Shown one piece after another: positions 1,631 to 54,100 of a stretch of 64,000 bases of DNA. The stretch is from Lingula anatina (lineage: Eukaryota > Animalia > Brachiopoda), in NCBI GenBank assembly GCA_051362555.1, contig CM120648.1, positions 19,092,587 to 19,156,586 of the forward strand, written 5' to 3'. Position numbers and translations under genes: made by a program. The notes beneath the pieces are model-generated. The model was not told the origin of the DNA. It saw only the letters and a list, made by a program, of their open reading frames with translations, and made no database searches. Position 1 is the stretch's first letter, and each line of letters opens with the position of its first letter.

Positions 1631-1682
1631 AAGGGTCCAAGGGAAATGACCGTAACCTTGGAAACCCGACTGAAACCGGTCA
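1621..1682 (+). promoter_or_regulatory. Programmed -1 ribosomal frameshift signal (slippery heptamer + H-type pseudoknot)
   Basis: T TTA AAC (1621-1627) in the gag frame just before TAG; pol is in the -1 frame and open from 1621. After a 5-nt spacer, stem TCCAAGG(1636-42)/CCTTGGA(1656-62); loop TGACCG(1647-52) pairs with CGGTCA(1677-82). Confidence 0.85.
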
Positions 1683-3654
1683 CAAAACGGGTGAAACCAT
1701 CGTGACTTCATTGTCTCAAACACGAACCGTTGACAATACTATCCCCGTAATGGAAACATTGCATCGTCCTCATCATTCCGAGTTAGAATGTGGTCAAAAT
1801 CCTGTAATTGATGAACTTGGGGTTTTTCGATCTTCATTCGTTCCTTTGGTAGTGGCGGGTGTACATGTAATGGCCAAAGTTGACACCGGTGCGCAAGTTT
1901 CTGTCATGGCTGAAAAAATATTCGAGCAAATAAAAAATAAACCATCGCTCAAGAAATATTACAGTCTTACTCTTGCGGCAGGGGATATACAAATCGAAAC
2001 TCGTGTTTGTGAGCCAATTTCCATCGAACTAGATCGTTTCAAAATCAAGGAATCTGTTCTGGTAGCGCCGATACATGACGATTTTTTGTTAGGCCACGAT
2101 CTAATTGCCCAGTTTAATGCGAGCGTGCATTGTAATTTGGGTTACATCCAAATAGAAGGGCGCGACATACCTATGCAGCAAACGGAGTCGCGTGCACAAG
2201 ACATTAAAATAGCTCGGGTTAGCGTTTCACGAAATGTAGTAGTACCCCCAAATTCAGCACTAAGGATAACGTGCGAGATCGACGAAAAGTTAGAAAAATA
2301 CGTCGTCGAGGGTAAAGAAGAAGAGGGACTACTAATACCGAGAACTGTCTTGTCCGAAAAATCAAAACCAGTCGTGTGCCTCTTAAATCCATCAGATCAA
2401 TTTAAAAAATTAAAAAGGGGTCATGTGGTCGCTACGGCTTGCGAAGTTTCGGAAATTTTAGAAAACCCTGTTTCGCACTTCGGTTTACATCGAGTGGGAG
2501 GGGGGTCTACTAAAATTGACCAATCCAGCGCTCGTGTTGTCGGTACCACTGATGAGACAATGACTACCGATCTACTGGTGGGATTACCTGAAATTACTCG
2601 TGTAAAATCAGCCGTCCCTAGAACCGGTAGGGATTCTACAAACACACTTGTGGGATTCAATTTACCAGTGGAGCATTCAATTTACACTCCTAGAACTAGT
2701 AAAATCCCTAGAACAGGTGTGCACCCAAATATGACAAAGCTTGTGGGATTAAATTCTACTGGGGTTTGTGGTGTTAATTCCCCTAATTTTGAGAATATCC
2801 CTAAAACAAGTGCCCGAATTAAAAATGACATAAAAAGTAAACAACTTCTGAAGGTGGGTGGAAGTACTCAGGGCCCTTTAAGTGCCCCATCTGCCGGAAA
2901 GGGGTTCGTTGAAGAAAAAATTAACACCGAAATTTTCAAGTCACCTGTAAAGGGGTCACCTCAGGTGCGGAATTTTAAACAAATCGCTGGTGACGTTCAC
3001 GCCGGACAAGATTCTTCTGGACGCGTCGCTAGCAAATCATCAGAAATTCCTGACCATGTTAATGTGGTTTATGAAACATCAAAGAGGAATTTAAACAAAA
3101 TTCAGAGTAAAAAATTAAAGAATGTTCTATCTGAATTTCAGGATGTTTTTGCTAGAGACGAGTATGACCTTGGTCGGTTTAGTGCCATCGAGCATGGTAT
3201 CGATACCGGGAATGCCAAACCTCTTAAAACGCGTATGCGGCGAACTCCCGCGTGTTTTATTCAAGAAGAGGAGGCATTATTAACAAAAATGTTAAAAGCC
3301 GGGGTCATCCAAGAGTCTACGTCAGAGTGGGCATCAGCACCAGTTTTAATTAGAAAACGTGACGGTTCCGTCCGATGGTGCATCGATTATCGCGCCTTGA
3401 ACAATGTCACGGTCAAAGACACGTATCCATTACCCTTAATGGAAGATTGCAAAGATACTCTGTCGGGAAACATCTGGTTTTCGAAGTTAGATGCCAATTC
3501 TGCGTATTGGCAAGTCAAAATTAAACCCGAAGATAGGCATAAAACAGCTTTTATCACGAAATACGGATTATTCGAACATGTCCGTATGGGTTTCGGCTTG
3601 ACCAATGCTCCTGCGACTTTCTCCCGAGTAGTCAATTTACTTATGAAGGGTTGA
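1621..3654 (+). CDS. pol: Gypsy Pol, 5' part: aspartic protease, spacer, N-terminal half of RT
   Basis: AKVDTGAQVS protease motif and LLGHD; RT motifs SEWASAPVLIRKRDGSVRWCIDYRALN, KLDANSAYWQ, MGFGLTNAPATF. ORF track 1702..3654, extended to the frameshift site. Confidence 0.92.
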   Translation, partial: FKLEGSKGNDRNLGNPTETGHKTGETIVTSLSQTRTVDNTIPVMETLHRPHHSELECGQNPVIDELGVFRSSFVPLVVAGVHVMAKVDTGAQVSVMAEKIFEQIKNKPSLKKYYSLTLAAGDIQIETRVCEPISIELDRFKIKESVLVAPIHDDFLLGHDLIAQFNASVHCNLGYIQIEGRDIPMQQTESRAQDIKIARVSVSRNVVVPPNSALRITCEIDEKLEKYVVEGKEEEGLLIPRTVLSEKSKPVVCLLNPSDQFKKLKRGHVVATACEVSEILENPVSHFGLHRVGGGSTKIDQSSARVVGTTDETMTTDLLVGLPEITRVKSAVPRTGRDSTNTLVGFNLPVEHSIYTPRTSKIPRTGVHPNMTKLVGLNSTGVCGVNSPNFENIPKTSARIKNDIKSKQLLKVGGSTQGPLSAPSAGKGFVEEKINTEIFKSPVKGSPQVRNFKQIAGDVHAGQDSSGRVASKSSEIPDHVNVVYETSKRNLNKIQSKKLKNVLSEFQDVFARDEYDLGRFSAIEHGIDTGNAKPLKTRMRRTPACFIQEEEALLTKMLKAGVIQESTSEWASAPVLIRKRDGSVRWCIDYRALNNVTVKDTYPLPLMEDCKDTLSGNIWFSKLDANSAYWQVKIKPEDRHKTAFITKYGLFEHVRMGFGLTNAPATFSRVVNLLMKG

Positions 3655-6600
3655 CATGGAAAACAGTTTTGGCATTTTTGGACGATATTTTGGTAATGGG
3701 GAAGTCCTTTGAAAATCATTTAGAAAATTTGAAAGAGGCTTTGGGAAGATTTCGCCAGTTCGGTATCAAATTAAAGCCAAAAAAGTGCGTTTTGTTTCAA
3801 AAGGAGGTTGAATTCCTGGGGCGGATTGTTTCTAATAACACCATGAAAATGAGCCCTAAGGATATTGAAGTTGTAACTTCTTGGCCACAACCCACTTGTT
3901 CTAAGGACGTTGAAAGGTTCTTAGGATTGGCAAATTATCACCGGACATTTATAAAAAATTTTGCGGAAATATCCCATCCTCTGAGCAAAATTAAAGGTAA
4001 ACATGCCTTTGAATGGGGACCAGATCAAGCTCAATCTTTCGAAGCGCTCAAAACGGCATTGACTACACCACCAGTCTTATCATTACCAAACGCAAACGAT
4101 CCGTTTATTTTGGACACCGACGCTTCAAATCACTCGATTGGTGCAGAGTTAATACAAGTGCAAAACGGCGAGGAGAAAGTAATTGCGTACGGCAGCTACG
4201 CGTTAACTCCCGAACAAAAGAATTATTGCACCACGCGAAAAGAGCTTTTGGCTATCGTGAGATTTACCAGACAATTCAGGTATTATCTTTTGGGCCGAAT
4301 ATTTACCGTTCGCACCGATCATTCAAGTCTGACGTGGTTACTGAGGTTTAAGGAGCCTCAAGGTCAACTCGCGAGGTGGATAGAAGAGCTTTCGCAATTC
4401 AATATGATCGTACAACATCGTGCCGGAGCTAAGCATAGCAATGCCGATTCGTTGTCTAGAATACCCGACAATTTGGCACCGTGTAACGAGTATATTGCGG
4501 GAATAAAGCCGGAAAATTTACCTTGCGGAGGATGTAGTTATTGCGTCAGAGCCCATGAAAACTGGGGGAGTTTTTTCGGTGACGTCGATGAAGCGGTCAA
4601 TTTAACAGAAAAGAAAAAATTGTCATCCAAATTTACTGGTAAATCTACAAAAAGTCAACGCGATCTGACATCCTCATTAAATACAGTCAATCTGGGACGA
4701 GAAACGGGTCCGGAACATCTTTTTTATTGTCTCCTAGATAAAATTGTAGCCCTCTCTACCGATGTAGCTCTGCAACCCGAGGAATCTCATGTAGAAATAA
4801 ATGCGTGTGGTCCGGAGGCGAGGTCAAATCCAAACCCGGATATTCCTCAGTGTTGGGGTTTTTCTATGGAAAAATTAAAAACTGAACAAGCAAAAGACCC
4901 TGAGCTTAACATTTTACGAGAGTGGTTGTACAAAGGGAATACCCCAGATCAGGGTGCACTCTTCCGATCAAGCCCAATCTCCAAAACTTACTGGCTGAAT
5001 AAAGAATTATTCAAATTACATCATGGAGTCATTTTCAAAACTGAAGAGGAAAGCAAAGATCTAAAATTAGTCATCCCAGAATCATTAAAAAATTCTGTTT
5101 TCAAATTACATCATGATATCCCTTCAGCTGGTCACCAAGGAGTGGCTAGAACAAAAACAAAAATCAAAGAAAAATTCTACTGGCCCCATATGAGCAAAGA
5201 AATAGCCAATTATGTCCTGAGTTGTGACATCTGTAATAAAAATAAGAAAAAAGGGTGTTACGGAAGAGTCCCCCTGACTGAATATGTTGCAGGTGCTCCG
5301 ATGGAACGGGTTCATATTGATTTCTTGGGACCGCTACCTAAAACAGCAAAAGGTAATGAGCATTGTTTGGTCATGGTTGATCAATTCACAAAGTGGGTAG
5401 AGTGCGTACCGTTGCCTTCTCAAACGGCTGAAGTTACCGCGAAAGCAGCAATTGACTGTTTCTTTTCTAGGTTCGGTTATCCCTATCAACTTTTTTCTGA
5501 TCAGGGACGGAATTTTGAAAGTCAATTGTTCGGGGATTTGTGTAGGGCTTTACATATACACAAATCACGCACTACTCCGTACCGACCGTCTGCAAATGGA
5601 CAGGTTGAAAGGTTCAATCGTACCCTGATGGATGCCGTACGGTGTTTTTTGGGTAAAAATCAGGGTGAATGGGATAAATATGTCCAGCAAATTGCAGGCG
5701 CGTTGCGTGCTTCTGTAAACAGAAGTACGGGGTATACCCCTAATATGCTCATGCTTGGGAGGGAGGTCAGTACTCCAGCCCAAATTATGTTCCCAAATCT
5801 GAAATCAAAAGAAACTGACTATGGTGAATACATTTCAAAGTTAGTACAAAAAATGAAATTAGCTCATATTACAGCAAGAGCCAATTTAAAAACAACTTCA
5901 AAACGCATGAAACGTGACTATGACCTTAAAATCCTGCTTAGACCTTATGCTGAAAAGGATTTGGTTTATGTTTTGGATACAGCAACAACTAAAGGCAAAT
6001 CACGAAAATTGTGTTCACCATGGAAAGGACCCGCCATCATTGTAAAGAAATTATCTGGCTATCTGTATCGAGTGAAGCTAAAAAATGCAATCTTTGTAAT
6101 TAACCATGACAGGCTCATGCCCTGTAGGGACAGAAATGTACCCTCATGGATTACAGAATATTTAGCTTCTGATGAACAATTTCAGCACTCGAGTAACAGT
6201 GAGGAAGAAGATTTGACACCATACTGTATTTGCAGGGAGCCTTATCAGGGCAGATTCATGATTCAATGTGATTACTGTCATGAATGGTATCATGGATCCT
6301 GCGTCAATGTCACTTCTACCGAAGCGATAAACATTGATAAATACAAGTGTGTAAAATGTCAAATCAAATTATTATTTTTCATTGTTATTACAGATATGGC
6401 CAATACTATCACGGAAGTAGCACCTGTTGTGAAGGAGACTTCACTCAGATTACAGCATTGTTCACCTATAGATGTCCCTGGAACCCAGTTTGTCCAGGAT
6501 TTGGCCCAGGCTCTGCCTGGGGAAGATCACAGCAGCTACTTCAAAACACTGGTGGCTGGGATGGCTACCATTTATAAAAAGGAGCTTCGTGCTCCCGGTA

Positions 6601-8687
6601 GGTATGCCATGTCTCTGGCATGGTTGCAGCAAGTGGCCTACCAACTACAATCTAGTGGGCTTGCGTCTAAAAACTGGATTGAGAAGAATGTTTGGCGCCT
6701 TCCCAAAAATTTCACCCCTCCTGCACGAGTTTTGAAATCTGCTCCCTCCGTGGAGTACGATGGACAAAAAACTCGTGATTTCAGGCTTGGGAAGGACCCA
6801 AACATTACACTCATAACCCAGGTGGTCGATGGGAGTGGCACGGTCCAGCCTATGGAGGTGGAATCGCAATTGGATGAGGCTGAACTTGGTGTGGGGTCAA
6901 GTAACATCGACCCCAACTCCAGTCTGGACTCCATTGAGGAGGACAGACTTCTTGGAGTCCCAAGGGAGGCCAAATGCAGCGTGAAACCTCCAGCTACTCC
7001 GGAAACTCCTATGCCAGGCGCATCACTGCTGCAAAATACCGCCATCCCTTTTAACTTTTCTATCTCCTCTTCTTCAGGTTCACACCTCCCTGAAGCTGCT
7101 GCTCCAACAGGGATCCAAGTTCCTGTTCCTGGGCCTGTACCATCTGAGCCCATGGGGGGCAGTAAGCGTAAGGGGAAGAAGAGAGCTCCTTGGTGGAGGC
7201 GTGGCAAGAAACCTGGCAAGGGGTTGGTTGCTGCAAAGTCTGGGGTGGATGGGCATGTTGAGTCAGCGGAGCTGTCTCATCCTACAACCAGGGAACCGAA
7301 AAGGTCTAGCCAGACACCATCCGGAGTGGTTGGACCTGACCCCAAAAGGGCCAGGAAAGATCACTCCGAGATGCAATGTGTGGTCCCTGGGTGTGGGGTG
7401 AAATTCAATGAGCAGATGCTCAGGCAGCATTCGCTGGGGCTGCATGTCCCGTCTATCTTTGATGAGCGCGCCAATCCTGAGCCCAACATCTTGGGTGTAA
7501 TGGTTAAAGCACTGGAGATGCTTACTTTCTTCATTTTTGGTTTTAAAAAAGAACTGGACACTTTATACCAGTTCATTTCGGCTCTTCCAGATAAATTAAA
7601 TTTAGCCCATGGCACTTTTTCTTCAATCCAAATTACTGCCATGGAAAATTTCTGTAAATTTCTCAATAAACCGGTCCCAGTGTGTTTCACCTTATACCCA
7701 GCTAACTCTGTCGGGGTCCTGGTGGATTGGAGAGTCCTGACACAGCTGTCTGCTTCTATAACGGAGCAGCAGAGGTCGTTGTGGATTCAAGGGTTCACCA
7801 GGCCAGAAACTTGTCTGGAGGCGGGGGAACAAAGTAAGTCAGGGAGGCAAGCTTTCGATAGTCACTATCATCTAGATAGAACCCTGGCTGCCTTTGGTCT
7901 TCCATACTCTGGCAAGTTAGAGGGTCTTAAGGGTTTGCTTCCTGTTTGCTCTGGGAAAGAGGTAGAGTTGGTGGGAACTGTAGCTATTTACTGCGATCCC
8001 AAGACATATCCTACTAAGGGGTATCTTTCCACTCTGTCTGGGATCGAGTATGTAGCTATTGGTTTTCACCCGAGGCTAGCCGGCAAGCTTTCTCAGGGCA
8101 ATCTGGACCAGGCAATTAAGGCTTTCTCAGAGTTGGTTAAGATGCCGCTAGTAACAGCTTTTGGCGAGGTAGGTTTCGACCACACTGAAGCCATGTCTAA
8201 ATGGCAGGATCAGGTTGAGTTGCTCCACAGACTTCTGCCTTTTCTAGAGGCCAGGCATGTCCTGGTTGTGCACTGTAGGGGAGTGAGGGGAGACTCTGGA
8301 GACTGTGAGTTCGCCATAAGATCTCTTTTGTTTCATCTGAAACTGTGTGGCGTTCCGCAGTCCCAGAGGATCCATTTTCACTGCTTTACAGGCACTAAGG
8401 CCCTTCTCGAAATTTGGGGAAGGCAGCAACCAAATACCTTTTTCGGTTTCACCCGGGTTGCTGCCACCTTTAACAAACACCAGTTGGCAGCACTTAGGGC
8501 GGTGCCCGACTCCAAACTTCTTTTGGAGTCGGATGCCCCCTATTTCGCTCGCAAAAAGGGGGGCCATTCAACACCCTTTACTCTCTATGAAACGGCAGAG
8601 ATATTGGCGGGGCACAGAGGGGTGGATGTCTCTCATATTTTAAAAATCACTACACAAAATGGTACTTCCTTGTATAAAAGGGAGTAA
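3651..8687 (+). CDS. pol: Gypsy Pol, 3' part (RT palm, RNase H, integrase, PHD finger), continuing in frame into a C2H2 + TatD protein
   Basis: AFLDD; RNase H ILDTDAS..TDHSSL..NADSLSR; integrase HHCC (HHDIPSAGH..CDIC) and D,D,E (HIDFLGP, SDQG, VERFN); PHD at 6222-6359; TatD motifs from 7851. Joined to the 5' part by an apparent 1-nt deletion near 3650 (expected KG-L-TWK). Confidence 0.92.
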   Translation: MTWKTVLAFLDDILVMGKSFENHLENLKEALGRFRQFGIKLKPKKCVLFQKEVEFLGRIVSNNTMKMSPKDIEVVTSWPQPTCSKDVERFLGLANYHRTFIKNFAEISHPLSKIKGKHAFEWGPDQAQSFEALKTALTTPPVLSLPNANDPFILDTDASNHSIGAELIQVQNGEEKVIAYGSYALTPEQKNYCTTRKELLAIVRFTRQFRYYLLGRIFTVRTDHSSLTWLLRFKEPQGQLARWIEELSQFNMIVQHRAGAKHSNADSLSRIPDNLAPCNEYIAGIKPENLPCGGCSYCVRAHENWGSFFGDVDEAVNLTEKKKLSSKFTGKSTKSQRDLTSSLNTVNLGRETGPEHLFYCLLDKIVALSTDVALQPEESHVEINACGPEARSNPNPDIPQCWGFSMEKLKTEQAKDPELNILREWLYKGNTPDQGALFRSSPISKTYWLNKELFKLHHGVIFKTEEESKDLKLVIPESLKNSVFKLHHDIPSAGHQGVARTKTKIKEKFYWPHMSKEIANYVLSCDICNKNKKKGCYGRVPLTEYVAGAPMERVHIDFLGPLPKTAKGNEHCLVMVDQFTKWVECVPLPSQTAEVTAKAAIDCFFSRFGYPYQLFSDQGRNFESQLFGDLCRALHIHKSRTTPYRPSANGQVERFNRTLMDAVRCFLGKNQGEWDKYVQQIAGALRASVNRSTGYTPNMLMLGREVSTPAQIMFPNLKSKETDYGEYISKLVQKMKLAHITARANLKTTSKRMKRDYDLKILLRPYAEKDLVYVLDTATTKGKSRKLCSPWKGPAIIVKKLSGYLYRVKLKNAIFVINHDRLMPCRDRNVPSWITEYLASDEQFQHSSNSEEEDLTPYCICREPYQGRFMIQCDYCHEWYHGSCVNVTSTEAINIDKYKCVKCQIKLLFFIVITDMANTITEVAPVVKETSLRLQHCSPIDVPGTQFVQDLAQALPGEDHSSYFKTLVAGMATIYKKELRAPGRYAMSLAWLQQVAYQLQSSGLASKNWIEKNVWRLPKNFTPPARVLKSAPSVEYDGQKTRDFRLGKDPNITLITQVVDGSGTVQPMEVESQLDEAELGVGSSNIDPNSSLDSIEEDRLLGVPREAKCSVKPPATPETPMPGASLLQNTAIPFNFSISSSSGSHLPEAAAPTGIQVPVPGPVPSEPMGGSKRKGKKRAPWWRRGKKPGKGLVAAKSGVDGHVESAELSHPTTREPKRSSQTPSGVVGPDPKRARKDHSEMQCVVPGCGVKFNEQMLRQHSLGLHVPSIFDERANPEPNILGVMVKALEMLTFFIFGFKKELDTLYQFISALPDKLNLAHGTFSSIQITAMENFCKFLNKPVPVCFTLYPANSVGVLVDWRVLTQLSASITEQQRSLWIQGFTRPETCLEAGEQSKSGRQAFDSHYHLDRTLAAFGLPYSGKLEGLKGLLPVCSGKEVELVGTVAIYCDPKTYPTKGYLSTLSGIEYVAIGFHPRLAGKLSQGNLDQAIKAFSELVKMPLVTAFGEVGFDHTEAMSKWQDQVELLHRLLPFLEARHVLVVHCRGVRGDSGDCEFAIRSLLFHLKLCGVPQSQRIHFHCFTGTKALLEIWGRQQPNTFFGFTRVAATFNKHQLAALRAVPDSKLLLESDAPYFARKKGGHSTPFTLYETAEILAGHRGVDVSHILKITTQNGTSLYKRE
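6396..8687 (+). CDS. Putative ORF3 of the Gypsy element: basic/NLS-like region, C2H2-like finger, TatD-family nuclease domain (763 aa)
   Basis: ATG 2 nt after a strong acceptor TTATTTTTCATTGTTATTACAG (AG at 6392-6393). TatD motifs FDSHYHLD, GFHP, FGEVGFD, VVHCR, HFHCFTG, LLLESDAPY; CVVPGC-x11-H-x4-H at 7377-7445. Confidence 0.8.
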   Translation: MANTITEVAPVVKETSLRLQHCSPIDVPGTQFVQDLAQALPGEDHSSYFKTLVAGMATIYKKELRAPGRYAMSLAWLQQVAYQLQSSGLASKNWIEKNVWRLPKNFTPPARVLKSAPSVEYDGQKTRDFRLGKDPNITLITQVVDGSGTVQPMEVESQLDEAELGVGSSNIDPNSSLDSIEEDRLLGVPREAKCSVKPPATPETPMPGASLLQNTAIPFNFSISSSSGSHLPEAAAPTGIQVPVPGPVPSEPMGGSKRKGKKRAPWWRRGKKPGKGLVAAKSGVDGHVESAELSHPTTREPKRSSQTPSGVVGPDPKRARKDHSEMQCVVPGCGVKFNEQMLRQHSLGLHVPSIFDERANPEPNILGVMVKALEMLTFFIFGFKKELDTLYQFISALPDKLNLAHGTFSSIQITAMENFCKFLNKPVPVCFTLYPANSVGVLVDWRVLTQLSASITEQQRSLWIQGFTRPETCLEAGEQSKSGRQAFDSHYHLDRTLAAFGLPYSGKLEGLKGLLPVCSGKEVELVGTVAIYCDPKTYPTKGYLSTLSGIEYVAIGFHPRLAGKLSQGNLDQAIKAFSELVKMPLVTAFGEVGFDHTEAMSKWQDQVELLHRLLPFLEARHVLVVHCRGVRGDSGDCEFAIRSLLFHLKLCGVPQSQRIHFHCFTGTKALLEIWGRQQPNTFFGFTRVAATFNKHQLAALRAVPDSKLLLESDAPYFARKKGGHSTPFTLYETAEILAGHRGVDVSHILKITTQNGTSLYKRE

Positions 8688-35486: not shown

Positions 35487-35867
35487 TACATTTGACAGAT
35501 TTGCTGTCTTGTTTTATCTGGGTACAAACACGACAATTTAATTTTCTGTAAAATAAGTCTTCTTTATATGACTGAGGATTATTTTTCTTTTTGCCAAGGG
35601 ATTCCACCTTCTATGTGTTTTTCGTTGGCCATTATACCTTATGTGCCTTGAAGACTGGGCACTTGATACCAATTATACTTGATCTTATTAGACGCATTTT
35701 CGATGTAATTTATTTATTTTTATACAATATTTATACAATATCCCAAAGTTATATGTTAAAATTTTGTAAAGAAATTCCTTTATCTTAGCCACGTTTTTGT
35801 TTACGTTAAGATTGAGTCATTTTCTGCTGGAATGGGGTTTGATATTCTTCTTCTCTTTATTCTACAG

Positions 35868-35918
35868 CCGCTCCCCCTGATGACAGGGAATCACCTGCCT
35901 CTCCTGACAGAGAAGCAG
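35868..35918 (+). CDS. ROCO-HEPN gene 51-nt exon, copy 2 (AAPPDDRESPASPDREA)
   Basis: ctctttattctacag| ... CAG|gtaagt, phase 1-1; paralog of 25211-25261 including flanking intron. Confidence 0.7.
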
Positions 35919-35978
35919 GTAAGTAGTGCACATGTAGTAAAACAAGATTCCGTCTTTTGCTCAGAATCTGCGAGTGTT

Positions 35979-36024
<46 letters not shown>

Positions 36025-36927: not shown

Positions 36928-39900
36928 CTATGTAAGTCTAAGTATTAAATTGTGCAAGCATACGTACATGGCCTTAAGGTGGCCCAAATTCTGTACTGAG
37001 TCCAGATATTTTTTAGCAAATTCGACGAAAGAAATAAGTAATAATTGTTTGTTTCTGCACCTAAAGCTGTAGATATAGTATTTGATTAACATATTTAGGA
37101 CATTATACGCATCTTTGTTATTTTCTTTTTTGTCAAGAATTCCAAATATAAATGTTATTTTCTCTAAAGTCATATTCAGCTTGTCTTTGATTACATTTAA
37201 AAAGGTCTCAGTTACAGAACAATCCCATAGTACATGAATAATTGTCTCCGTCTCTTTCTCGCACCTTTTGCAAAGGGGGGTGTTAACCAAACCAGTTTTT
37301 GCAAGATAACTATTTGTCGGTAATATATGTTGATTTATTTTATACTGGAACCATTTAAATTTAGGACTGATAGGAAGGTTGAAAGGCAGTTTATTTATTA
37401 GAGACCACTCTTTGTCATTAATATTAAACAATTTATTCCAATTAATTTTGCCCTTTGAAATAGAAGCATTCTTACTAAGTATTTTATAAAAATCTTGGCA
37501 GCCCTTCTTACTTTTAAAGAAGATACTTAAATATTCTGGGAGTTTAGGGAGCATTACTTCAGATTCGTTTATATCATGCAATTTCAAGTATCGCTTAATA
37601 ATGCTTACCACCCCTTGATATTCTAGGAAGTTGGTCTGAATACCATATCGCTTATTTATTTCTTCTTGTGAGAAAAAGGTAATTGTTTTAGTGTCTTTTA
37701 TAAAGTCCCTTATTGCAGATATACCTTTATTAAACCAGTGCTTATAGTATATTACCTTACTGTCTACTCTTAGGGCTTCATTATACCAGACAGGGGTGTC
37801 CAACACGGGCTTGTTTTTCCCCCTTAACTTGTCTTCCTTAACCCTGAGTTCTTTCCATGCAAGTAACACATCCCCCTAGAACCGGTTTTGGCAAACTTTT
37901 AGACATTTATTCAAATACTCATTACCACCCACTGACAAAAGTTCGAAATTTAGATATTTAGCTACGATAATTTGCCATTTTTTCCTTTTTGTATAAATAC
38001 GTCTAATCCATGTTAATTTTAGTGATGATATCAGTGAAGGCAAGTGTATCATTTTGATACCACCTTCATCGTAATTTTTAATAATTATATCCCGCTTAAC
38101 TTTATCGATCTTTGAGTTCCACAAAAAGTGGAAGAGGTCACTCTGAAGGTCATTGATAAACCTTTGACTAGGATTCGGTAAGGATATAAACAAATGATTT
38201 AATTGGGAAATTATTAAGGATTTTATAATTATACACTTGCCGATGGGGGTGATCATTCTTCTGTTCCATCCATTAAGAATAGACTTAATTTTTACTAATT
38301 TCTTATCAAAATTAAGTTTGGGGATTTGAAATAGATTAACATGAAATTCAATTCCTAAAAGATTAAACTGGTGCTTTCCCCAATCAAGATGCATATGTGG
38401 CAAAAATTTTAAATTACTGAACTTCATACGTCCTATCCATACTATTTTGGTTTTATCTTTGTTTATTTTCAACCCTGATATTTTTGAAAATTTATCTAAT
38501 TCAATCATAAGTTCGGATAAAGACTTTTCTGAGCCATCAAGCATCACTGTCGTATCGTCTGCGTATTGAGTTAATAAAATGGGGGCGTCATCAATAGTGA
38601 TACTTTTTATATTATTGTTATTCTTGAGTATTATTGAGAGTATTTCCGCACATAAAATAAACAAATAGGGGGCTATTGGGTCTCCCTGCCTGCAGCCTCT
38701 TTTAATGTAAAAGGACTCTGAGAGATTGCCTCCTTGATTTATTGCTGCTTGTGCACCCTTATTAAAAGTATTTATCCATTTGATAATACTTTCACCAAAG
38801 TTAAAAAAAACTAGTACCCTGTCAATAAATTTCCACGACACAGCGTCAAAGGCCTTTTCGAAATCTAATAGCACTAACATTCCAGGAATATCGTTATCTT
38901 CTGTGTATTGCATAATATCGTATACAGTACGGATACTTTCCCCAATGTATCTCCCGGATATAAAACCGCATTGATCGTCTGAAATAAGTTTGCCCAGGTA
39001 TTTCTTGACTCTGGATGCTATGACTCCGGAGGCTATTTTATAGGTAACGTTTAACAAAGAGATCGGTCTCCAGTTTTTCAAGTATTGCTTGGGCTTTTCA
39101 CCCTTAGGGAGACACGTAATTACACTTTGTCGCTGTGTAATTGAAAGTTGACCAGTCGAGTAACCCCAGTTTATGGATCTAACAACAAAATTGCCGAGCT
39201 GTGACCAGAATACCTTAAAGAATTCGACAGTGAACCCATCCGAGCCTGGACTCTTATTACTTTTCATTTTTTTTCAGAATTTGGGAGGCTTCATTTAGAC
39301 TAATTATACCCTCTAGTTCACTTGACTCAACATCTGTGAGCCTCAATGGATAATTGTGCGGTAAAATTGTGCTTAAGTCAACATCAATCACTTCATTAGA
39401 CTCTGCAAATATCTGTTCGTAGTAGCATTTAATTTCTTTTAAAATTAATGTTTGGGTAGTAATTTCTTCTCCGTTATCTTTAACTATCTTAGGTATTATT
39501 TTTGAAGTGAAATTTCGGTTTTCTAGGTTTAAAAAATATTCAGTGGGTTTTTCACCCTCTTCCAGCCACTTTGTCCTGGATCTTATCATACTACCCCTTA
39601 TTTTATTTTCCCTGATGTATTTTAGTTCCTCTTGTAATCTCTCTATATTATTTGCGTTTAGATTGTAATTTCTCTCCAAATTACTTATTTCTGTTATCAA
39701 TTTTTTTTCTCTGTCGCCAACTAATTTTTTCTTATAAGATGAAACGGAAATGGATTTGCCCCTGATCTCCATAAGTAGGGTCTCAAGAAAAAGTTGATCA
39801 TTTACGGTAAACTGTATGTCAGAGTCCGGAATTGAGCAGATATTATTTAGGTTATAGACAGGAAGTGCATACTGGATTTTTATATTATTAATAAGTTGTT

Positions 39901-40699
39901 TTATATTGTCTATATATTCTATATCATCAAGCAGAGAATTATTGAATTTCCATAACCCTTTACCTTTCCTAAATGGGTTAAATTCAATATTAATCCCTAC
40001 AATGGAGTGGTCGGATCTATAACTCGATTCGATAAATGAGTTTTTAATACTTCTTACAAGGTTTTCTGTCACAAGGAAAAAATCTAGTCTCGCTTGTTTA
40101 ATGGGATTTTTTCTCCTCCAAGTATATCTCTTATAACATTCATGTTGTTCTCTATACACATCAACTAAATCATAAATTTCAATAAGTTCTAATACTTTTT
40201 TTCTTGCTTTTGGGTTGTTTATATGTCGATATGTCTGATCATAATCTATTTCTGGATTTAGAACCAAGTTGAAATCACCACAGATAATAGAGTACTCATT
40301 ATCGGTATCCTGTAGCCCCAATTCTATCTGTTTATAGAAGTCGGGAGAATCAAGATTTGGACCATATATATTGATCAATGTCACTTTTCTATCTTCTAAT
40401 AAACAATTTTGTAATAGAAAGTTACCCGCATCGTCTTTTTTTTCACTGATTACTTTAACATCGGCAGTGTTATTTAAAAGTATAGCGACACCCCTCGAGT
40501 TCGACCTGTACGAGCTAAAATAGGCCTTATATCCCCACTCAGACCTAACCCTTGATTCTATTTCAGACGTAAAATGTGTGTCTTGTAGGCATAGGATATC
40601 ATATTTCTGTTGCCTTAAATAAGAAAATATGTCTTTCCTTTTTTGTCTATCCCCAAGGCCCTGGCAGTTAACGGAAACAATCTTAATACAACTTGTCAT
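36928..40699 (-). pseudogene. LINE ORF2 (APE endonuclease - RT - CCHC), disrupted by one frameshift and one stop
   Basis: SVNCQGL, LQDTH, GDFN, RLDFFL, SDH (endonuclease); KSPGSDG, LDFEKAFD, RQGDP, QYADD (RT); CKRC..ETIIHVLWDC. Frameshift in the A run at ~39267-74; in-frame TAG at 37876-78 (likely from TGG). Confidence 0.93.
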
Positions 40700-40927
40700 T
40701 TGAATATACGGCTCTAATAAATGTCGAGGTTAGCTTTTTCCCTTATTTTGCTTTTCATCGCTCTCACCTCAAAACAACTTTTTACCACCACCAGATTGGC
40801 ACCGTTCTTCCAAATAGCTCCACCTATCATCAACATAAAAATATAATGCAATAAGTACACATTAATTCTACTAGTGGACGAGTATAAGAAAAAAGGTAAA
40901 ATTAACATAATTTGTCATTGTAGGCTA

Positions 40928-43900
40928 CCCAGACAGCCTCAATAATCTGGCCCACGTCTGGCCCAGATCTGGCAACGTCTGGCAATATCTGGGCCAGATT
41001 TTGCCAGACACTTGCCAGATCTGGGCCAAGTCTGGCAAAGTCTGGCATTTATGCCACATTTTGCCAGACACTTGCCAGATCTGGGCCAAGTCTGGCAAAG
41101 TCTGGCATTTACGCCACATTTTGCCAGATGCTGCCCAGACTTGGGCCAGATATAGTACTTTCATTTTCAATTTTTATTTTCTATTTATTTATTTTTTATT
41201 GACCAGTGAGCTGAATGCATTGAACTGACGTCATTTGATAAATTTTGATTTAATTTATCTCTCTCTTTTTTCTTCAAAGTCCCCTCCTAAGTGTGCTATT
41301 TGTTTAATTTGACTTGACATTTGAATGAATTCACTGATCTAAAACTTTTTTGGACTACTCGTTCCGCTGTTGTAAGATTCCGCTTTTTATGCTAAGCCGG
41401 TCAAGGACCCGGATGTAGCGTTTCTTAGAGTTATGGATATGAAAAAAGCACAAGCGTATCAAACTGAAACAATTTCGTTGAGTGATTTGATTCGTGGTGC
41501 GATTTATTTCGAAGGCATCAACACTGGCGACGAGGATAAACACTAGTGCAAAACTGTGAGTCAAGTTTCTTTGAAAAAAATGGAGAAAAAATGTGAAATT
41601 ACGGAATTCGAACCGTACAGAAGTCCGGAGACATTGGGTCACGCTCGACGCGATGGCTAGACAGTTTAAACTTTTCGCTGACGGAAAAAGATTGATCTTT
41701 TCAAAACCAACGAACGGCATGAATAATGAACAAAGATAGAAAATTAAAAATACATGACAAAGGAGACGCGCGCTTATGTTGTATTCAGCAGGGACAGGTG
41801 TACAACTTACAAGATATTTTCAGGACTCTCCCAAACACAGGTTAGAAACATGAATATACATAAGACAGTTAATGCTTTGAATGAAATTGGAACACCAGAA
41901 ACTGAGTATGATGAAACTGAAGTCATTTGACAAACCAAGCCAGTCTAAACATTACGAGTTTAGACATGAAAAACGAAGTAGAAACTCCCTGACTGAGAAA
42001 ACATGGAACGTTGGATCACTTTGCAAAACTCTGCAAAACTGAAACTATTATTCATGTAAATGACAGCTTTGAACATGAAAATCCAGGAGTGCATATACAT
42101 TTGGTGTGGGAACCAATGCACAGAAGACATGGAGGAAATAGAGGAGGTGTTAATCTCAGTGTATTACCAGATTCAGGTGCATATTGTAATATCATTGATG
42201 AAAATACATGGAGAATGCTGAAATCCAAGAAAAATAAATGTGGCTCTTGTGGAGGACCAGAAAACAAACAGTATTATTCATGTACACGTCTGAGAAACCT
42301 TTAAAAGTGAAGGGAACATTTGAATATGACGTAAAGGCAAGCAAAGGAAGAGACCAGTAGTAGTGAAAGGACATGGGATTTGATATGAGTTGATTAGTTT
42401 TGAGAATTTTCAGTGTGGTTTAAGGAATAAAAGTTGGAGTTCATATGCTATTCTGCAAATGTTAGAAAAGACATTTTAAAGACTGAACTGTCAATTAACA
42501 TGTTTTGAAAGGACCGTTTCTCTCCAAGAAAGGAAGGGATGTTGTGTTTGGACTTGACATTTGAATGAACTTTTGTTAACTTGGTAGAGTTACTTGTTCC
42601 ATTGTTGATTCCTTTAATAATTATAAGCTTGTCAAGGAGGCGGGTGTATCATTTCTTAGTGTTATGGATTTGAAAAAAGCGCAAGCATTGCAAACTGGTT
42701 CAATTCATTGAGTGATTTGATTCGTGATGTGATTTAATTCAAAAGCATTGATACTGGGGTTTGTTTTTGTGCACATGTAATTCTCTTTTAATTGTACATC
42801 TATATCTGTGCTGGAGTATACATATTTTTTTTTTTCAGAATTTACATGTATGTACAGTACTGTAGCCAGCATGCAAGTTGAATTGAAACAGTTACTGCAT
42901 GGTTATTTATAATTTTGTTATAACTCTCCATCATCTAAAAAAGAATGTTTTTTCATTCATTATTCAAGATTTATTCATTACAAAACTATATTCATTAGTG
43001 ATTATTATTATTAATGATATGTTTGAATTAGTTTAAAAATGACAATGTATAATATTATTTAGGTTGAGGTGTGCAAAAATATTTCCCCCTCAAATCCCCC
43101 CCCCCCCATGTACATGCATAATTAATTACAATTTTTGTAATTTGTGTTAATTCAGATTCGATGAGCAGCTTTGTGTTGAAAAAAAAATTGTTGTTATAAC
43201 TGTTTTCTTTACATGTATGTAAGTGACATTTCCTCCTGTTAAGTGTCTGTATATTTGCCTTTTTGCAGTGTGGTTTTTTTTTTTTTTTTTTTTTCAAACA
43301 TACAAATTGTTTTGTACAAAAAGACAAGGAGTGGCCCTTAATTTGTTGCATGTTAGTTGCCAGCAAGGTTATATAATGTGTAATAATTTTGTTTAGGCTT
43401 TTAGCACAGAATAAATACTTGAATCTTGAGTCTTGTATGTCTTTTTTTATAGTTATCTTATTGAATAATTAAAAATAATTAAAAAAAGAAAAAAAAAAAC
43501 AATCTGGGCCATATGTGGTCCATGTCCGGCCCTAATCTGGCCCACATCCGGCATGCCATACCTTTGCCAGATATTGCCAGATCTGGGCCAGATCTGGCCA
43601 CATGAGCAAATGTGAAATAATAAAAAAAAAAACAATCTGGGCCATATGTGGTCCATGTCTGGCCCTAATCTGGCCCATTTGAATATGATCTGGCCCATAT
43701 CTGGCCCACATCTGGCATGCCATACATTTGCCAGATATTGCCAGATCTGGGCCGACATCTGGCCATATGAGCAAATGTGGACTGGGCCAGATGTGGCAAT
43801 GTCTGGGCCAGATCTGGCCCAGACATTGCCACATCTGGCCCACATGTGGCAAGCCATACCTTTTGCCAGACATTGCCAGACGTTGCCAGATCTGGGCCAG

Positions 43901-43930
43901 ACGTGGGCCAGATCACTGAGGCTGTCTGGG
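40928..43930. mobile_element. CMC/EnSpm-like non-autonomous TIR element in the LINE inter-ORF spacer
   Basis: CCC...GGG termini with TA on both flanks; long TIR CCCAGACAGCCTCA.T.ATCTGGCCCACGTCTGGCCCAGATCTGGCAACGTCTGGCAAT; dense subterminal (TCTGG/CCAGA) repeats. Confidence 0.8.
41301..42753 (+). mobile_element. Old, internally deleted Gypsy-like LTR element
   Basis: Two diverged ~215-bp LTRs (41301-41523, 42540-42753); PBS TGGCGACGAGGAT (41525-37) complementary to the 3' end of tRNA-Ser(GCU); PPT AAGAAAGGAAGGGA (42526-39); protease relic VLPDSGAYCNII. Confidence 0.8.
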
Positions 43931-44799
43931 TATCTTATACTGTAGTGCAACAGCTTATCCGAGGTAAGGGCGTACGCCTTGAACCTCTCGCACTTACACT
44001 TGCTAGGTATTCCCTTTCACTTACACAGAATAACATGAGCTGTAAACTGTCCATTTTGACATACACACTTACACAAACGTTCACACACACACATATCCAC
44101 AATACACGAGTCATCACTACAAAATACCTAGGACGTACTACGAGTCCTAGAAAAGACAAAGCAGCGGTAACACTCACGACGCTTGCATACATCAACTAGC
44201 CGTCGGTCACGTGCACAGACACGGTGATTGTATTGTTGTTACAAACTGTAAAATATCGGTATGTTCTATTTTACACATGTCGGCTGGGACGCCAAGGGGC
44301 CCTTTTTGCGTTTGTGACATGAGCGCATAATAATAGGAGTTTAGTTCCCCGTCATTGCCTATTAAGCAATATATATATTGAGCAATGTGCACATAATCGT
44401 AGCCAAATACTCCCAATAGGTACGATGTCCCCTTCTATTCGGAGCGTACGTATACCAACCGACAATGAAAATTGAGCATTGTTGAATACATCTTATATTT
44501 GCATGTATTGTCAATAGCTTAGCTAGTAGTACCACATGTATAACAGCATACCGTATCTCGAGAAACGAGAGTGTGTGGTCATCCGGTGCCCACATCAGCA
44601 AGACGCCCCGTGAATACCTGTATTATAAAAATACATGATCAATAACTCAAAACTATATACAATTATTACTATCAAGTAAACAACCGAGACACAGATAATC
44701 TGTACATATATTTACCATAGAAGCAGCTCACCCACACAGGCGTTTGACTATATATGTATATATACATCTTATCAAACAAACTAACCTAGCCTACACGAT

Positions 44800-46032
44800 C
44801 TAATCTAATTGGAGAGCGTCAATTGCGGACTCTTGATAATAACTGAATCTCTCTGAATTTAAGTGCTGTCCAACCACCCTTGACACTACAATCAATCTAT
44901 TTTCTACCCTCTTGGCTTCTAGGAGGTTGGCCAGTGTTTTGGCTACACTTACATCGTTATTGTCATTGTAATATACTGTCCAGGCACCGCCACTTTTTAT
45001 TCTGTAGGCGTAAACAAGCGAGGCTCCGCTTACTTGGCCGCCTGCTATTATGGAGGCAAGCGCAGATTGTGCGTCTTCGACTGAATTCACTCTTGTAGAG
45101 ATTCCCATAAAGGAGTTACCCTTTGCTTTAGTTTTCTTTTCAGAGAACTTTATTTCATGTCGATGGTTTTTCCTATGTGTTGGTAGGTTTTTTAAACAGT
45201 TATCGGGCTTGCGATCATCTGGGGTATATAAGGAGTTATTTATATAGAGTTTTTCGCCCACTAACCTGTGTTTGATATTTTTTGCCCTTAATTCTTTCAT
45301 GACGGGATAGAGCGTTCTTCTTCTTTCTTCCACCTCCTTGGGATACTGGTCAGTTATCCTTATGTAGGTGCCCTTCAGATTTTTGGTATATTTCATAACA
45401 GTTCTTTTGTCATGGAATGTCGTACATTTTGCTATTATTGCCCGCGGTTTGGGTCCGTTAGTTACCGATCCAATGCGATGAACCCTATCAAAAGACACGG
45501 TTTCTTCCGCGGGGATCTTCATCTGTTGAATCAGCACCTGTCTCAGTGTATTCTCCACGTTTTCCTGCGGTCCAGTCTCGGGAATGTTATGAAATAGTAG
45601 GTTATCTCTCATGGATCTCGTTTGTAGATTTATCATTATCTGGTGATCCGTGTCGACTTGTCTTTGTAGGCTTTGTACTCTCTGCTCGCTAATATTGAGT
45701 TGTTCTCTTAGCACATTGTTCTCAGTTTCAAGAGCACTTACTTTCTCGTCCAGTTGGGTCATATTTTCATCGAGACTTTTAACCGAAATCTCAACTTGTT
45801 TGAGAGAATCTTTGAAGGTTTTTGTAATGGCGTCCAGTTTATCTTCGAACTTTGCCAAACAATCACTGATAATGTCCCTGATTTCGGTATTGTCTGTAAT
45901 GAGATATTTGTCACCCTCTTTTTTTCTTGAGCTTTTATCCATATTGCTCTCTTTGATGTGGAGTTTGGCCAACGGTGTGTTTTCTGTACTGGATGATGAA
46001 CTATGGGAAGTCCTTTGTCTTCCCCGTTTCAT
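44800..46032 (-). CDS. LINE ORF1p (coiled coil + RRM/CTD) with C-terminal IMPACT/UPF0029-like domain
   Basis: Heptad coiled coil; RSMRDNLLFHNIPE, DRVHRIG..PRAIIAK, ITDQYPKEVEERRRTLYP; tail GNSFMG..YAYRI..NDNND..NRLIVVSRVVGQHLNSERF. Confidence 0.88.
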   Translation of the reverse strand: MKRGRQRTSHSSSSSTENTPLAKLHIKESNMDKSSRKKEGDKYLITDNTEIRDIISDCLAKFEDKLDAITKTFKDSLKQVEISVKSLDENMTQLDEKVSALETENNVLREQLNISEQRVQSLQRQVDTDHQIMINLQTRSMRDNLLFHNIPETGPQENVENTLRQVLIQQMKIPAEETVSFDRVHRIGSVTNGPKPRAIIAKCTTFHDKRTVMKYTKNLKGTYIRITDQYPKEVEERRRTLYPVMKELRAKNIKHRLVGEKLYINNSLYTPDDRKPDNCLKNLPTHRKNHRHEIKFSEKKTKAKGNSFMGISTRVNSVEDAQSALASIIAGGQVSGASLVYAYRIKSGGAWTVYYNDNNDVSVAKTLANLLEAKRVENRLIVVSRVVGQHLNSERFSYYQESAIDALQLD

Positions 46033-46751
46033 TGTTTCATTGGCGCGATTTTTAAACGCACAAAAAATTCTCTTTTATCGTCACAGTACCGGGAACCCTG
46101 CCCCTTTCCGCTGTCATTTCACTTTATATTCATCCTCACACAGTCAGCCACAGTCCAACTACAACCGATCATATATAATTTAAGTATTTTATCACCGTGG
46201 CCCCAGCTTGAGTTCTACACCGCCGCCATCTTGTTCTCGTTCCGAGTGTTGTTCTTAGCTTGTCGATTAAGTATGTGAGTTCCTGCATTCTTATTTTCAT
46301 CAAACTGTATTAATAATGTTACATTAAAATTGACTATACCTTACAATTTTAATTGATTTTAATTAATGTTAAAACATTCAGTGTTTATCACCCCGTTATG
46401 TTTTGAGCTTACCCACTTGTATTCATCAGAGAGGATACATTTTTAAGAAAAAAATTTTTTTTCGCAAATTGCCGTTAAACCTTCAGAAACAGACGAAAGC
46501 TTCTAATTTATTTGATAACTGTTTCACAAAGTTAATTGACACTAAACACATTCAAATTTTGTGAATAATTACGATACTTTTTTATGCTAAAAAGTTTTAT
46601 TTTAACTGCACTGTTTATTGTACAGTCCTCATACCTCTGGGGAAGAAAACATGAGTAGAATAAGAATGTTGACGATATGTCGATGTATGAACAGTCCCTG
46701 ACAAATGAAATAAATTAGATTGAAAGCAAGTCTATAAAGATTAAGGTCTAG

Positions 46752-47016: not shown

Positions 47017-47262
47017 TGGCAGAAAGGGACCATCTAGATGATATTGACAAGGAGCTATTGGAAAAAATTGAGAAAATTGCCCGAGGAGAAGATGTGGAGC
47101 CAGAGAAACAGGTCACAATTTGGGATTTTGCAGGACAGGATGTCTACTACACCACGCACCAAACATTCCTCTCAGAGCGGATCATCTACTTGTTGGTATT
47201 CCGACTTGACCAGGACCTCGATGATAAAATCCGTGTATACAGGGGAGAGAAGACACTGAAAG
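47017..47262 (+). CDS. ROCO-HEPN gene exon: ROC G3
   Basis: ttcttcgcag| ... AAAG|gtattg, phase 1-1; TIWDFAGQDVYYTTHQTFLS ROC signature. Confidence 0.92.
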
Positions 47263-47389
47263 GTATTGTTGAGCTTTATGTATATATCTTTACATGTATA
47301 AGCTACTCAGGGCCCTCATGTAAATGGCCTGTCAGCTGTGTGTAATTTCTTTATTAAAAGACCCACATTTTTAAATCTCTCTATTGCTC

Positions 47390-51085: not shown

Positions 51086-52268
51086 GGCGACGTTGAAAAG
51101 ATTTTTGATAAACTCAAGAAGTGTCTCGACGACAGGCAGGTACTCAAGGACCACGTCTACCGATATTTTGCCATAAGCAACTTGGCCGAAGATGATGGGG
51201 AGTTCGCTGAAATAAAAAAAGCGATCGAAGATTTGTGCGGTTATAGCAGCAACAGTATTGCTACCGTTCAACATCTTTCAGTGAATTGGATTAAATTGGA
51301 AATGAATTTGGCAGAGAAGAGTGAAGAAACCCCCATCATATCTATTGAAAAACTGAGGGAAATGGCAAAAAGGGTAGGACTCCCTGATGAAGAATTACAA
51401 GAAAAGTTCATTCCTTACCATCACCGTCAAGGCGACATCCTACACTTCAAAGTTGATGGACTGGAAAATGTCGTCATAATAGATCCACTTTGGTTAGCAG
51501 ATGTGTTTTCTGCCATCATGACCAATGCCAGCAGTCAACCTGGAGGCAGTCACTTTGATCTCCTGAAAGACGATCTGAAAAGAGGAGTGCTCAATGAGGA
51601 GGTATTTGATGAATATCTAAAACAAATCAAAATGGCCGAAAAAAAGACTGAAATCATTCAACTTATGCTGCATTTCGACTTGATGTTAGAAATATCCCAA
51701 GCAGTTGAAAACCCTCTGCCCGGGTCTGGAAAGAGAAGATTTGTCGTGCCCAGTATGCTGGTATCCAATAACAGTGTAAATAACGCCTTGTCTGAGACGG
51801 ATCCACAGAAATATTTGCTTATCGCATTCCCTCACATTCTGTTTCCTACCGGGTTGTTTCATCTTCTGATCATCCGTCTTCTTAGGAAGTATAGAGCTCA
51901 GGAATATAAACATAACATTCCAGTTGTTGGGTTTGACCATGCCTCCTTCCGTTTGGGAGACGAACAGTCGGTGCTCCATCTCGCCATTGAAGAAAGGGCC
52001 ATGAGAATGATGATAACAAACGCTACTGGAAACAAACCAAAACCTGACATATACTCCAATGCACGGGAAACCGTTGAAAAAGAACTGTCAACTCTTCGGG
52101 ACACGTACTGTCCCAGGATGCAGTTAGGCTTTTGCATTCGGTTAAAAGACAAAGGAAAAGATATTCCAATAAAAGCAGAAGACGTCCAAGAAAACGATGA
52201 GATATGTAGATCTGTAGAGGGCACTGAAATGCCAATCGATGTGACACCGTATCGTGTTTGGTTTTCAG
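51086..52268 (+). CDS. ROCO-HEPN gene exon: end of ROC + COR domain
   Basis: ttattcatag| ... TCAG|gtaagc, phase 0-1; FAISN, WIKLE, YHHRQGDILHF, VIIDPLWLADVF, FVVPSML, PTGLFHLL. Confidence 0.92.
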
Positions 52269-53004
52269 GTAAGCATTAAAATTTTAGGTAGTTTTGCTGT
52301 GAACAGACATTGTTCCTGAATATAATTAGGGGTAATGTAGTCATTGAAATCGGTGTTAAACTGATGTAAATGCAACTAATCATATTGGGTGATGTACTAA
52401 GATTTACATGAAGAGAATTAATATTTCAAATTGTTGCCAATAAACCAAACTTTATATATTTTAAAATAATGTAACTTGATAAATACCCAAAGGTATTTTT
52501 TATAATCCCCGAAAATGATATATCAGCATTTTTCCCCTTGGCAAATTTTGCCCATCGCCTTTGTTAGAACAATATAAATATCTCCTACAAAATCATGCAA
52601 TTTATATTTTAATCATTCCAACAATATGAGTTTTACATGGGCATCAACGTCTGTGTGAGGGTAAGACTGTTGCAATTCTATGTACCGAACATTTTTCATA
52701 TAAACTGTCCCATATTAGATTTATTACCCAGCCATGCACGTGGCTAGAATTGTTTTAACTTCTAATTTAAAAACAAATGCCCAAGCATATTTGGAAAACA
52801 TTTAATGACAAAAATAAATACTATGCCCTGGTCGTATTTTGAGAATTTACCTGCGGTGCAGAAGGTAAATGTACAGCAGGTTACCTTTTGCTCACAACAC
52901 ATATCTATTAATAAGTTTCTTCATACTTAAATTACATGTATATTATTAATTGCTAATTATGGTTCATCATGTGCATATTCTTGTAATCCTTCTTATTCTT
53001 ACAG

Positions 53005-53037: not shown

Positions 53038-53342
53038 GTAATTTTGTATTTGGTAGTGCTTAGCTTAGGCTAAGAAGTACAAGCATTATTCTTATTTTTA
53101 CTTCTATTTTTATCTTTTAACTTACAAATCTTCAATATAAAGAAATAGCGTATTGTTACTAGCATGTACCCCCTGTTCATATGACTACATTTCACTGACT
53201 ACATATTTCTCCCATAATGCAGTGGTGGTTGCCGTATATTTTACACAAACACACACACACACACTAGTATACTACTCTATCTCTCTTTCCCTATAAAATT
53301 CTTGTTCAAAAAGCATTGATCATTATCATATGTTTCTATTAG

Positions 53343-54100
53343 TAGGTGCGAATGCCCCAGATGTGTCACAGAGGTTTGCAAGGCTGAGTTATCTCGTTGT
53401 TGAACTTGGAACAAAAGTCATAAGAACTTTCTTTCTCAAGGATGTTGTTAGGCCTAGCATCACTAATGGTGAGCACATCAGTGATAAAGATGCAGTGCTT
53501 CAGTTTTTTGGTAAGCATGACGTGATAAGGGAACTTGAGAAACTCAAGAAAACAAAAGTCATATATGCTTCTCAGTGGAATCTGTTGTACCCTGCCTCTG
53601 GTCATACAGATGTGGAAACGTTTGACATTACATTGCTGGTGTTATTGATAAGAAATCTTCACCCAGACAAAGCCAACCTGAAATGGTCAGCGCTCAAAGA
53701 AAATACCACTTTACCTTCCTCTCCACAAACAACACAAGGTTTCATCGACCACATCCAACGGCTTAAGAATGTCAGGAACTATATACAGCATTCCGCCACA
53801 TTTGGGATCCAAGACATGGAGAAATTCTGCACAAATTGGGAAATCGCCTGTGTTTCTGTTCTAGCACTTGGTGCAGATCCAAAGGAAGTGAAAAAGATAC
53901 AGGAATTCAACTTTAGCAAACAGGAGATAGATACAATAGTGTGCGAAATACGCAGCTCGGCCGAAGATAACAAACGGCATTTCGACAGCAGATTTGACAG
54001 GCTTGAATTACTAATATTTTCCTTTGTACGTGATGTTCGCTTTGCCATCTTCTTTGTCGTCCTCATTGCGTTAGCCATAAATTACCAGTGGTGGATTTAG
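53343..54100 (+). CDS. ROCO-HEPN gene last exon: DZIP3-type HEPN domain + C-terminal TM helix
   Basis: TAGTAG tandem acceptor, phase 1; FARLSYLVVELG, QWNLLYP, FDITLLVLLIRNL, RLKNVRNYIQH (Rx4H at 53774-53791); hydrophobic tail FAIFFVVLIALAINYQWWI-stop. Confidence 0.87.

Follow-up and report, generated by a model that had tools for sequence, protein, structure and literature searches.

An IMPACT/YigZ (UPF0029) domain at the C-terminus of a LINE ORF1 protein in Lingula anatina, with a degenerate pocket

Accessory domains of LINE ORF1 proteins are usually a guide to the demands that the element makes on its host cell, and a LINE in the genome of the brachiopod Lingula anatina raises the question of how a domain of the IMPACT/YigZ family came to stand at the end of such a protein and what it might do there. 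We analyzed a stretch of 64,000 nucleotides of this genome (the window), in which an open frame of 410 amino acids occupies positions 44800-46032 on the minus strand. A preliminary description, made from the letters alone, had read this frame as a LINE ORF1 in which a coiled coil, an RRM and a CTD are followed by an IMPACT/UPF0029-like tail, and had taken the tail for a captured accessory domain.

Architecture of the ORF1 protein

Both the Pfam profile and the predicted fold confirmed the nature of the tail. PF01205 (UPF0029) matched residues 306-407 (about 45117-44812) with an E-value of 6.2e-8 and 33 bits, against a Pfam cut-off of 27, and was covered at positions 3-107 of its 107. When the tail was searched alone against Pfam, UPF0029 was found at an E-value of 4.8e-9 and no other family was detected; yeast Yih1 (6bqi) was matched at the sequence level with an E-value of 2.2e-5. 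An AlphaFold model of the whole protein, computed from 24 aligned sequences, retrieved human L1 ORF1p (2yko) first in Foldseek (E 2.5e-9), then Yih1, 2cve and 1vi7; the match to human L1 ORF1p covered the front of the protein, and those to the other three its tail. The UPF0029 domain modeled alone had a pLDDT of 92 and in VIA gave Z 17.1 to 2cve (rmsd 1.5, 108 residues aligned), 16.4 to 1vi7 and 10.9 to 6bqi, values from a model that leans on an alignment of pocket-intact relatives. Among 48,161 chains, the next-best match had a Z of 6.5, and rmsd was 1.5-1.6 for the YigZ-family matches. The tail (residues about 294-410, positions 44803-45153, minus strand) is by profile and predicted fold a homolog of the UPF0029 or ancient domain, but it is not a pocket-intact member of the family. 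A chance match or a read-through into unrelated host DNA was ruled out by the profile, the fused homologs and the fold match.

The part preceding the tail has the predicted organization of a type II ORF1p. Residues 49-140 (45613-45888) form a continuous helix in the model and have weak matches to coiled-coil Pfam families, residues 144-272 (45217-45603) were modeled as RRM and CTD with Foldseek matches to 2yko, 2ldy and 2w7a, and residues 273-290 (45163-45216, all on the minus strand), with pLDDT below 50, appear to be a flexible linker. As modeled, the coiled coil, single RRM and CTD are in the same order as in human L1 ORF1p and the other type II structures, to which the window protein adds a 117-residue C-terminal UPF0029 domain. 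Parts of Pfam Transposase_22 matched the protein only at an E-value of 0.35. Type II ORF1p occurs in L1, CR1 and L2 elements, according to the sections consulted of PMC4120745, in which the Khazina and Weichenrieder types are summarized. When the domain was docked on a three-copy ORF1 core by complex prediction, the output (score 0.07, mark 0.34) spoke neither for nor against an association.

Compared to eukaryotic IMPACT and Yih1, with which it shares the ancient-domain fold, this ORF1p has no RWD domain by Pfam, in agreement with the preliminary description, and its front region is predicted to fold as L1 ORF1p instead; the ancient domain is thus joined to a putative capsid-like RNA chaperone of a retrotransposon, and host-specific residues are lost. 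IMPACT and Yih1 are GCN2 regulators that also bind actin, and GCN1 is bound by their N-terminal RWD. The IMPACT/Yih1 motifs ATHN, DDGE, RWxGG and LG..RF are also found in relatives of the window protein. Bacterial YigZ proteins (1vi7 and 2cve) are the best structural matches (Z 16-17), but the window protein lacks their DUF1949-type C-terminal domain. The YigZ subtype is characterized by DDGEP and LG.GGL, whereas fused domains have LG..RF and belong to the eukaryote-like subtype. That subtype was also observed in two small stand-alone alphaproteobacterial UPF0029 proteins (L081:341-739 and L087:290-643).

The surrounding element and its transcripts

ORF1 is the first ORF of an element with an endonuclease-RT ORF2, a poly(A) tail and a target-site duplication; this element is a recent full-length LINE, provisionally of the L1/Tx1 type. 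The duplication is an exact 14 bp repeat (5' copy at 46243-46256, 3' copy at 35971-35984), and an empty-site allele was present in a DNA contig and in RNA reads. The poly(A) tail lies at 35985-36022 and the 5' UTR, which adjoins the ORF1 start, at 46033-46242 (both minus strand). Other copies, in contigs from two DNA runs whose flanks differ beyond 46233, share a 5' end near this position that starts with CAAGATGGCGG, which resembles the YY1 site of human L1; of 20 related loci, a set with many 5'-truncated members, only 2 had such a start. ORF2 (36928-40699, minus strand; endonuclease, RT, zf-RVT) was assigned by Pfam, similarity to L1 ORF2p and the RT tree. In the window copy it is disrupted twice, by a stop at 37876-37878 and by a frameshift near 39267, the latter being absent from a contig of another run that crosses this site. 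The window RT matched human L1 ORF2p at an E-value of 4e-48 and R2 at 4e-17; judged by sequence similarity, it is closest to L1 ORF2p, as expected of a member of the L1 superfamily.

The spacer between the two ORFs contains a nested DNA element of 3.0 kb (40928-43930) with 77-nt terminal inverted repeats, a TA duplication, inverted ends CCCAGACAGCC and subterminal repeats, and one contig lacks it. This element is high-copy and non-coding-looking, and is transcribed on the plus strand in the RNA runs. A GT-AG intron also lies in the spacer (40824-44551, minus strand), as indicated by its donor and acceptor sequences and by RNA reads across the junction (5, from 2 runs); without the nested element it is 723 nt long. 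Spacers of relatives are long too (340-1028 nt). For such an intron to be kept in an autonomous LINE, unspliced RNA would have to be copied.

The LINE sits antisense in an intron of a host gene, the exons of which are spliced across the whole insertion. Parts of this gene, which encodes Roc/COR and HEPN_DZIP3 regions, were observed at about 35865-35918, 47018-47263, 51086-52279 and 53297-54100 (plus strand). Elsewhere in the window, positions 1603-8687 (plus strand) contain a Ty3/Gypsy-type pol (protease, RT, RNase H and integrase), whose frame continues into a PHD finger and then a TatD DNase domain (E 3.5e-27) at the C-terminus.

Sense-strand RNA of the window family covered ORF1 at low depth in three stranded runs, and any copy may be its source because the reads were 90-99% alike. 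In the poly(A) runs X12 and X13, depth was about 5-14 over 45243-46035 and about 2 over 44800-45180, on few reads; no read of run X16 mapped to the window stretch. All 16 of the best-supported ORF1 variants listed (11 synonymous and 5 not) were upstream of the domain. The nearest named protein, P0001 of L. anatina, is 99% identical to the window ORF1p, and the splice of its gene model, which would shorten the domain, was not seen among the few RNA reads there.

Distribution and inheritance of the fusion

The tail is also present in sibling LINEs. PF01205 was found in 23 of 85 homologs, and, in a set assembled by searching representatives clustered at 50% identity with a profile and by a domain search (ten cluster duplicates dropped), 160 of 332 proteins, the window included, had both the ORF1 core and the full domain. 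The linker had a median length of 22 residues in 141 fused proteins. Among metagenome loci the domain occurred in 20 of 80, a fraction that is no prevalence estimate because one of the two search patterns was derived from the domain. These results, together with the profile and fold matches, support the earlier view of a captured accessory domain. The only named carriers among the records were Lingula and Saccostrea. Two other proteins, P0162 and P0217, carry host-type IMPACT ancient domains in tandem arrays of two or three, and have neither RWD nor an ORF1 core.

Six of the 20 domain-bearing loci had an ORF2 in the same contig, of which four were L1/Tx1-type (L005, L010, L018 and L020) and two CR1-group-like (L004 and L070); these Tx1 and CR1-group labels are provisional and follow sequence motifs, the RT tree being built without named references. 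For the relative L005, the match over EN and RT scored 413 bits. In the RT tree, the window formed a clade (98/98) with the four IMPACT-bearing L1/Tx1 loci, and the two CR1-group-like loci fell on a distant branch. Exchange of whole ORF1s between LINE lineages has been described (PMC4120745, in the sections consulted), and the occurrence of the fusion with both types of ORF2 fits such an exchange.

How the fusion was inherited was addressed by three trees, of which the RT tree is better evidence than the domain tree that the window lineage inherited it. In a quick domain tree, 81 fused representatives grouped together (SH-aLRT 95) to the exclusion of host and bacterial domains. This search fell short of the optimum, as a tree constrained to place the window domain beside host IMPACT was the more likely one and passed the test (p-AU 0.82), so that a single capture is not established by the domain tree; host IMPACT and a small bacterial stand-alone protein are the candidate donors. 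In the ORF1-core tree, the window was weakly sister (SH-aLRT 81) to a set of ORF1s that lack IMPACT and lie within the fused ones; the members of this set had been chosen for their similarity to the window protein. This placement would fit a step toward domain loss. A tblastn search of phages and plasmids gave only YigZ-like matches, with less than 60% identity.

The ORF1 accessories given in the literature consulted are PHD, CCHC and esterase domains, with IMPACT not among them (e.g., the sections consulted of PMC4120745). Among the full-text papers searched, none linked UPF0029 or IMPACT to ORF1, and none containing the term UPF0029 was on transposons by its title. Likewise, the consulted portions of PMC5203782 (supplement file 2 as well as the main text), PMC11203168, PMC4120745 and PMC10294476 contain no mention of such a combination. 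At the family level, the fusion is a variant of type II ORF1p, of which the window copy is a pocket-degenerate outlier.

The pocket and its possible role

Most relatives have an intact pocket. All seven core residues (H, D, D, E, R, G and R) were present in 130 of 159 relatives, and identity in the domain exceeded that in the core in 119 of 147 proteins. In four close locus pairs, chosen for more than 50% domain identity, pN was 0.15-0.27 and synonymous sites were saturated, as they also were between the window and its relatives. The domain in relatives is as well conserved as the RRM-CTD, which points to a fusion maintained by selection in many LINE families, in a homolog set where eroded domains are under-sampled because it was gathered with a profile including the intact domain.

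The window domain departs from this pattern. Its altered motifs, YYNDNNDV in place of DDGE and SRVVGQHLNSERF in place of GG, have exactly the letters given in the preliminary description, and, beyond those, the conserved His of the ATHN motif is gone and the Gly of LG..RF is Asn. Three of the seven core pocket residues are retained (D357, R385 and R395); two glycine motifs are altered along with H, the second D and E, and a one-residue deletion is among these losses, which hit the most conserved positions of the family. Assembly error was ruled out, since a DNA contig from another run and individual spans 44763-45194 (432 nt) with 0 differences to the window. Using 52 host IMPACT domains as a reference, in which 28 columns are fixed at 90% or more, the window domain keeps 13 of these columns compared with a median of 23 for fused domains; one of the 160 is lower and two are tied. 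Mean identity of the window to relatives is 27% in the domain and 35% in the core, the largest deficit among 147 proteins, and its domain branch is 1.64 long versus a median of 0.77. Only 4 other relatives among the 159 have lost three or more pocket residues. Because most relatives keep DDGE, H and GG, the altered motifs represent erosion in the window lineage and are not a family feature. The preliminary description of a captured domain is supported, but it overlooked that this copy is an outlier.

The basic residues R344, R385 and R395 and the hydrophobic core persist, and comparison with relatives suggests that the window lineage likely carries a folded, non-catalytic remnant. The domain is open and full length in other copies of the window family, as would be seen either with continued use or with a recent relaxation. 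The domain of this lineage might alternatively have a new selected role based on its acidic/amide loop (NDNND) and net charge (+4 versus a family median of 0), a reading consistent with the open frame, the retained core and arginines and the 432 nt identical in another individual. We consider it improbable, as the losses include a one-residue deletion and glycines at the family's most conserved positions, RNA depth is lower over the domain than over the 5' part of ORF1, and the core is weakly sister to IMPACT-less ORF1s, though these were sampled by likeness to the window.

With about even confidence, we propose that this L1-type ORF1p bears a tethered IMPACT domain whose pocket, in the wider family, grips RNA or the ribosome on behalf of the RNP and is eroded in the window copy to a non-catalytic remnant. 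The domain would have been inherited from an IMPACT-bearing L1/Tx1 ancestor. If ORF1p trimerizes like other type II proteins, three tethered domains would be displayed on the RNP, and the conserved pocket in the wider family may hold RNA or a ribosomal surface and thereby aid the RNP of the element. In the window lineage, selection on the pocket would have been relaxed, with the fold and R344, R385 and R395 retained. After the UPF0029 structures, the closest folds (Z 5-6.5) are those of YicC endoribonuclease, RNase PH/exosome, ribosomal and EF-G domains, although values of this size can also stem from an arrangement that is common among proteins. The invariant residues of the ancient domain cluster on one face, which has been proposed to bind a conserved molecule (PMC4503747, in part), and both Yih1 and IMPACT bind ribosomes, Yih1 at least partly via its linker and not the ancient domain (PMC13094546, as far as consulted).

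The main rival to RNA or ribosome binding is an enzymatic role, in which the family domain, hydrolase- or nuclease-like and possibly metal-dependent, would act while the RNP forms or during priming, with an RNA end or adduct as its substrate, and the window copy would be a dead enzyme. Catalytic candidates have been proposed for YigZ, and the polar pocket is near-invariant in fused domains (H 151, D 154, D 156, E 144 and R 153 of 159). Moreover, a related type II ORF1 (P0059) has a NADAR enzyme domain (E 2.4e-38) in the C-terminal slot occupied by IMPACT, and esterases are known as ORF1 accessories (PMC4120745, in part). However, the consulted sections of the literature on the ancient domain (PMC4503747 and PMC7140605) report no activity for any UPF0029 protein, and an active-looking family in L. 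anatina tolerates pocket loss. On balance, we regard an enzyme as rather unlikely.

Modulation of translational stress responses via GCN2, as suggested in the preliminary description, is unlikely by the known route, because GCN2 inhibition works through RWD, which alone suffices (PMC7140605, in the parts consulted) and is absent here. A variant of this idea is that the domain acts as a decoy in the GCN1-GCN2 pathway, e.g., by binding RWD in trans, so that translation of LINE RNA is kept going. The Yih1 ancient domain does pack on RWD in the closed form (consulted parts of PMC13094546), and fused domains share the eukaryote-like subtype; against this stand the same dependence on RWD and the loss from most fused domains of three residues conserved in host IMPACT (D in 45/52 host versus 1/159 fused domains, R in 46/52 versus 29/159 and R in 46/52 versus 15/159), which suggests that host-specific contacts were dropped. 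A decoy is distinctly improbable.

RNA or ribosome binding remains our preferred reading. Tentatively, and with less confidence, we further suggest an undescribed large LINE lineage of marine invertebrates in which IMPACT was captured once, spread between L1/Tx1 and CR1-group elements, and has a pocket used on RNA or ribosomes as an enzyme or a ligand site.

The fusion explains some invertebrate entries named "protein IMPACT homolog" as LINE ORF1s, e.g., P0230 of Saccostrea. The ancient domain occurs in all kingdoms, and no function has yet been established even for its cellular forms (PMC7140605, in the sections consulted); its retention under selection as a fusion in many families of LINEs suggests a role linked to RNA or translation. 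The fusion also offers a quantitative assay, retrotransposition with versus without the pocket, to which the window copy adds a natural contrast with the same predicted fold and the pocket lost. If the suggested lineage is real, retrotransposition would give this universal domain its first direct assay, and the window copy would serve as a natural pocket-dead control.
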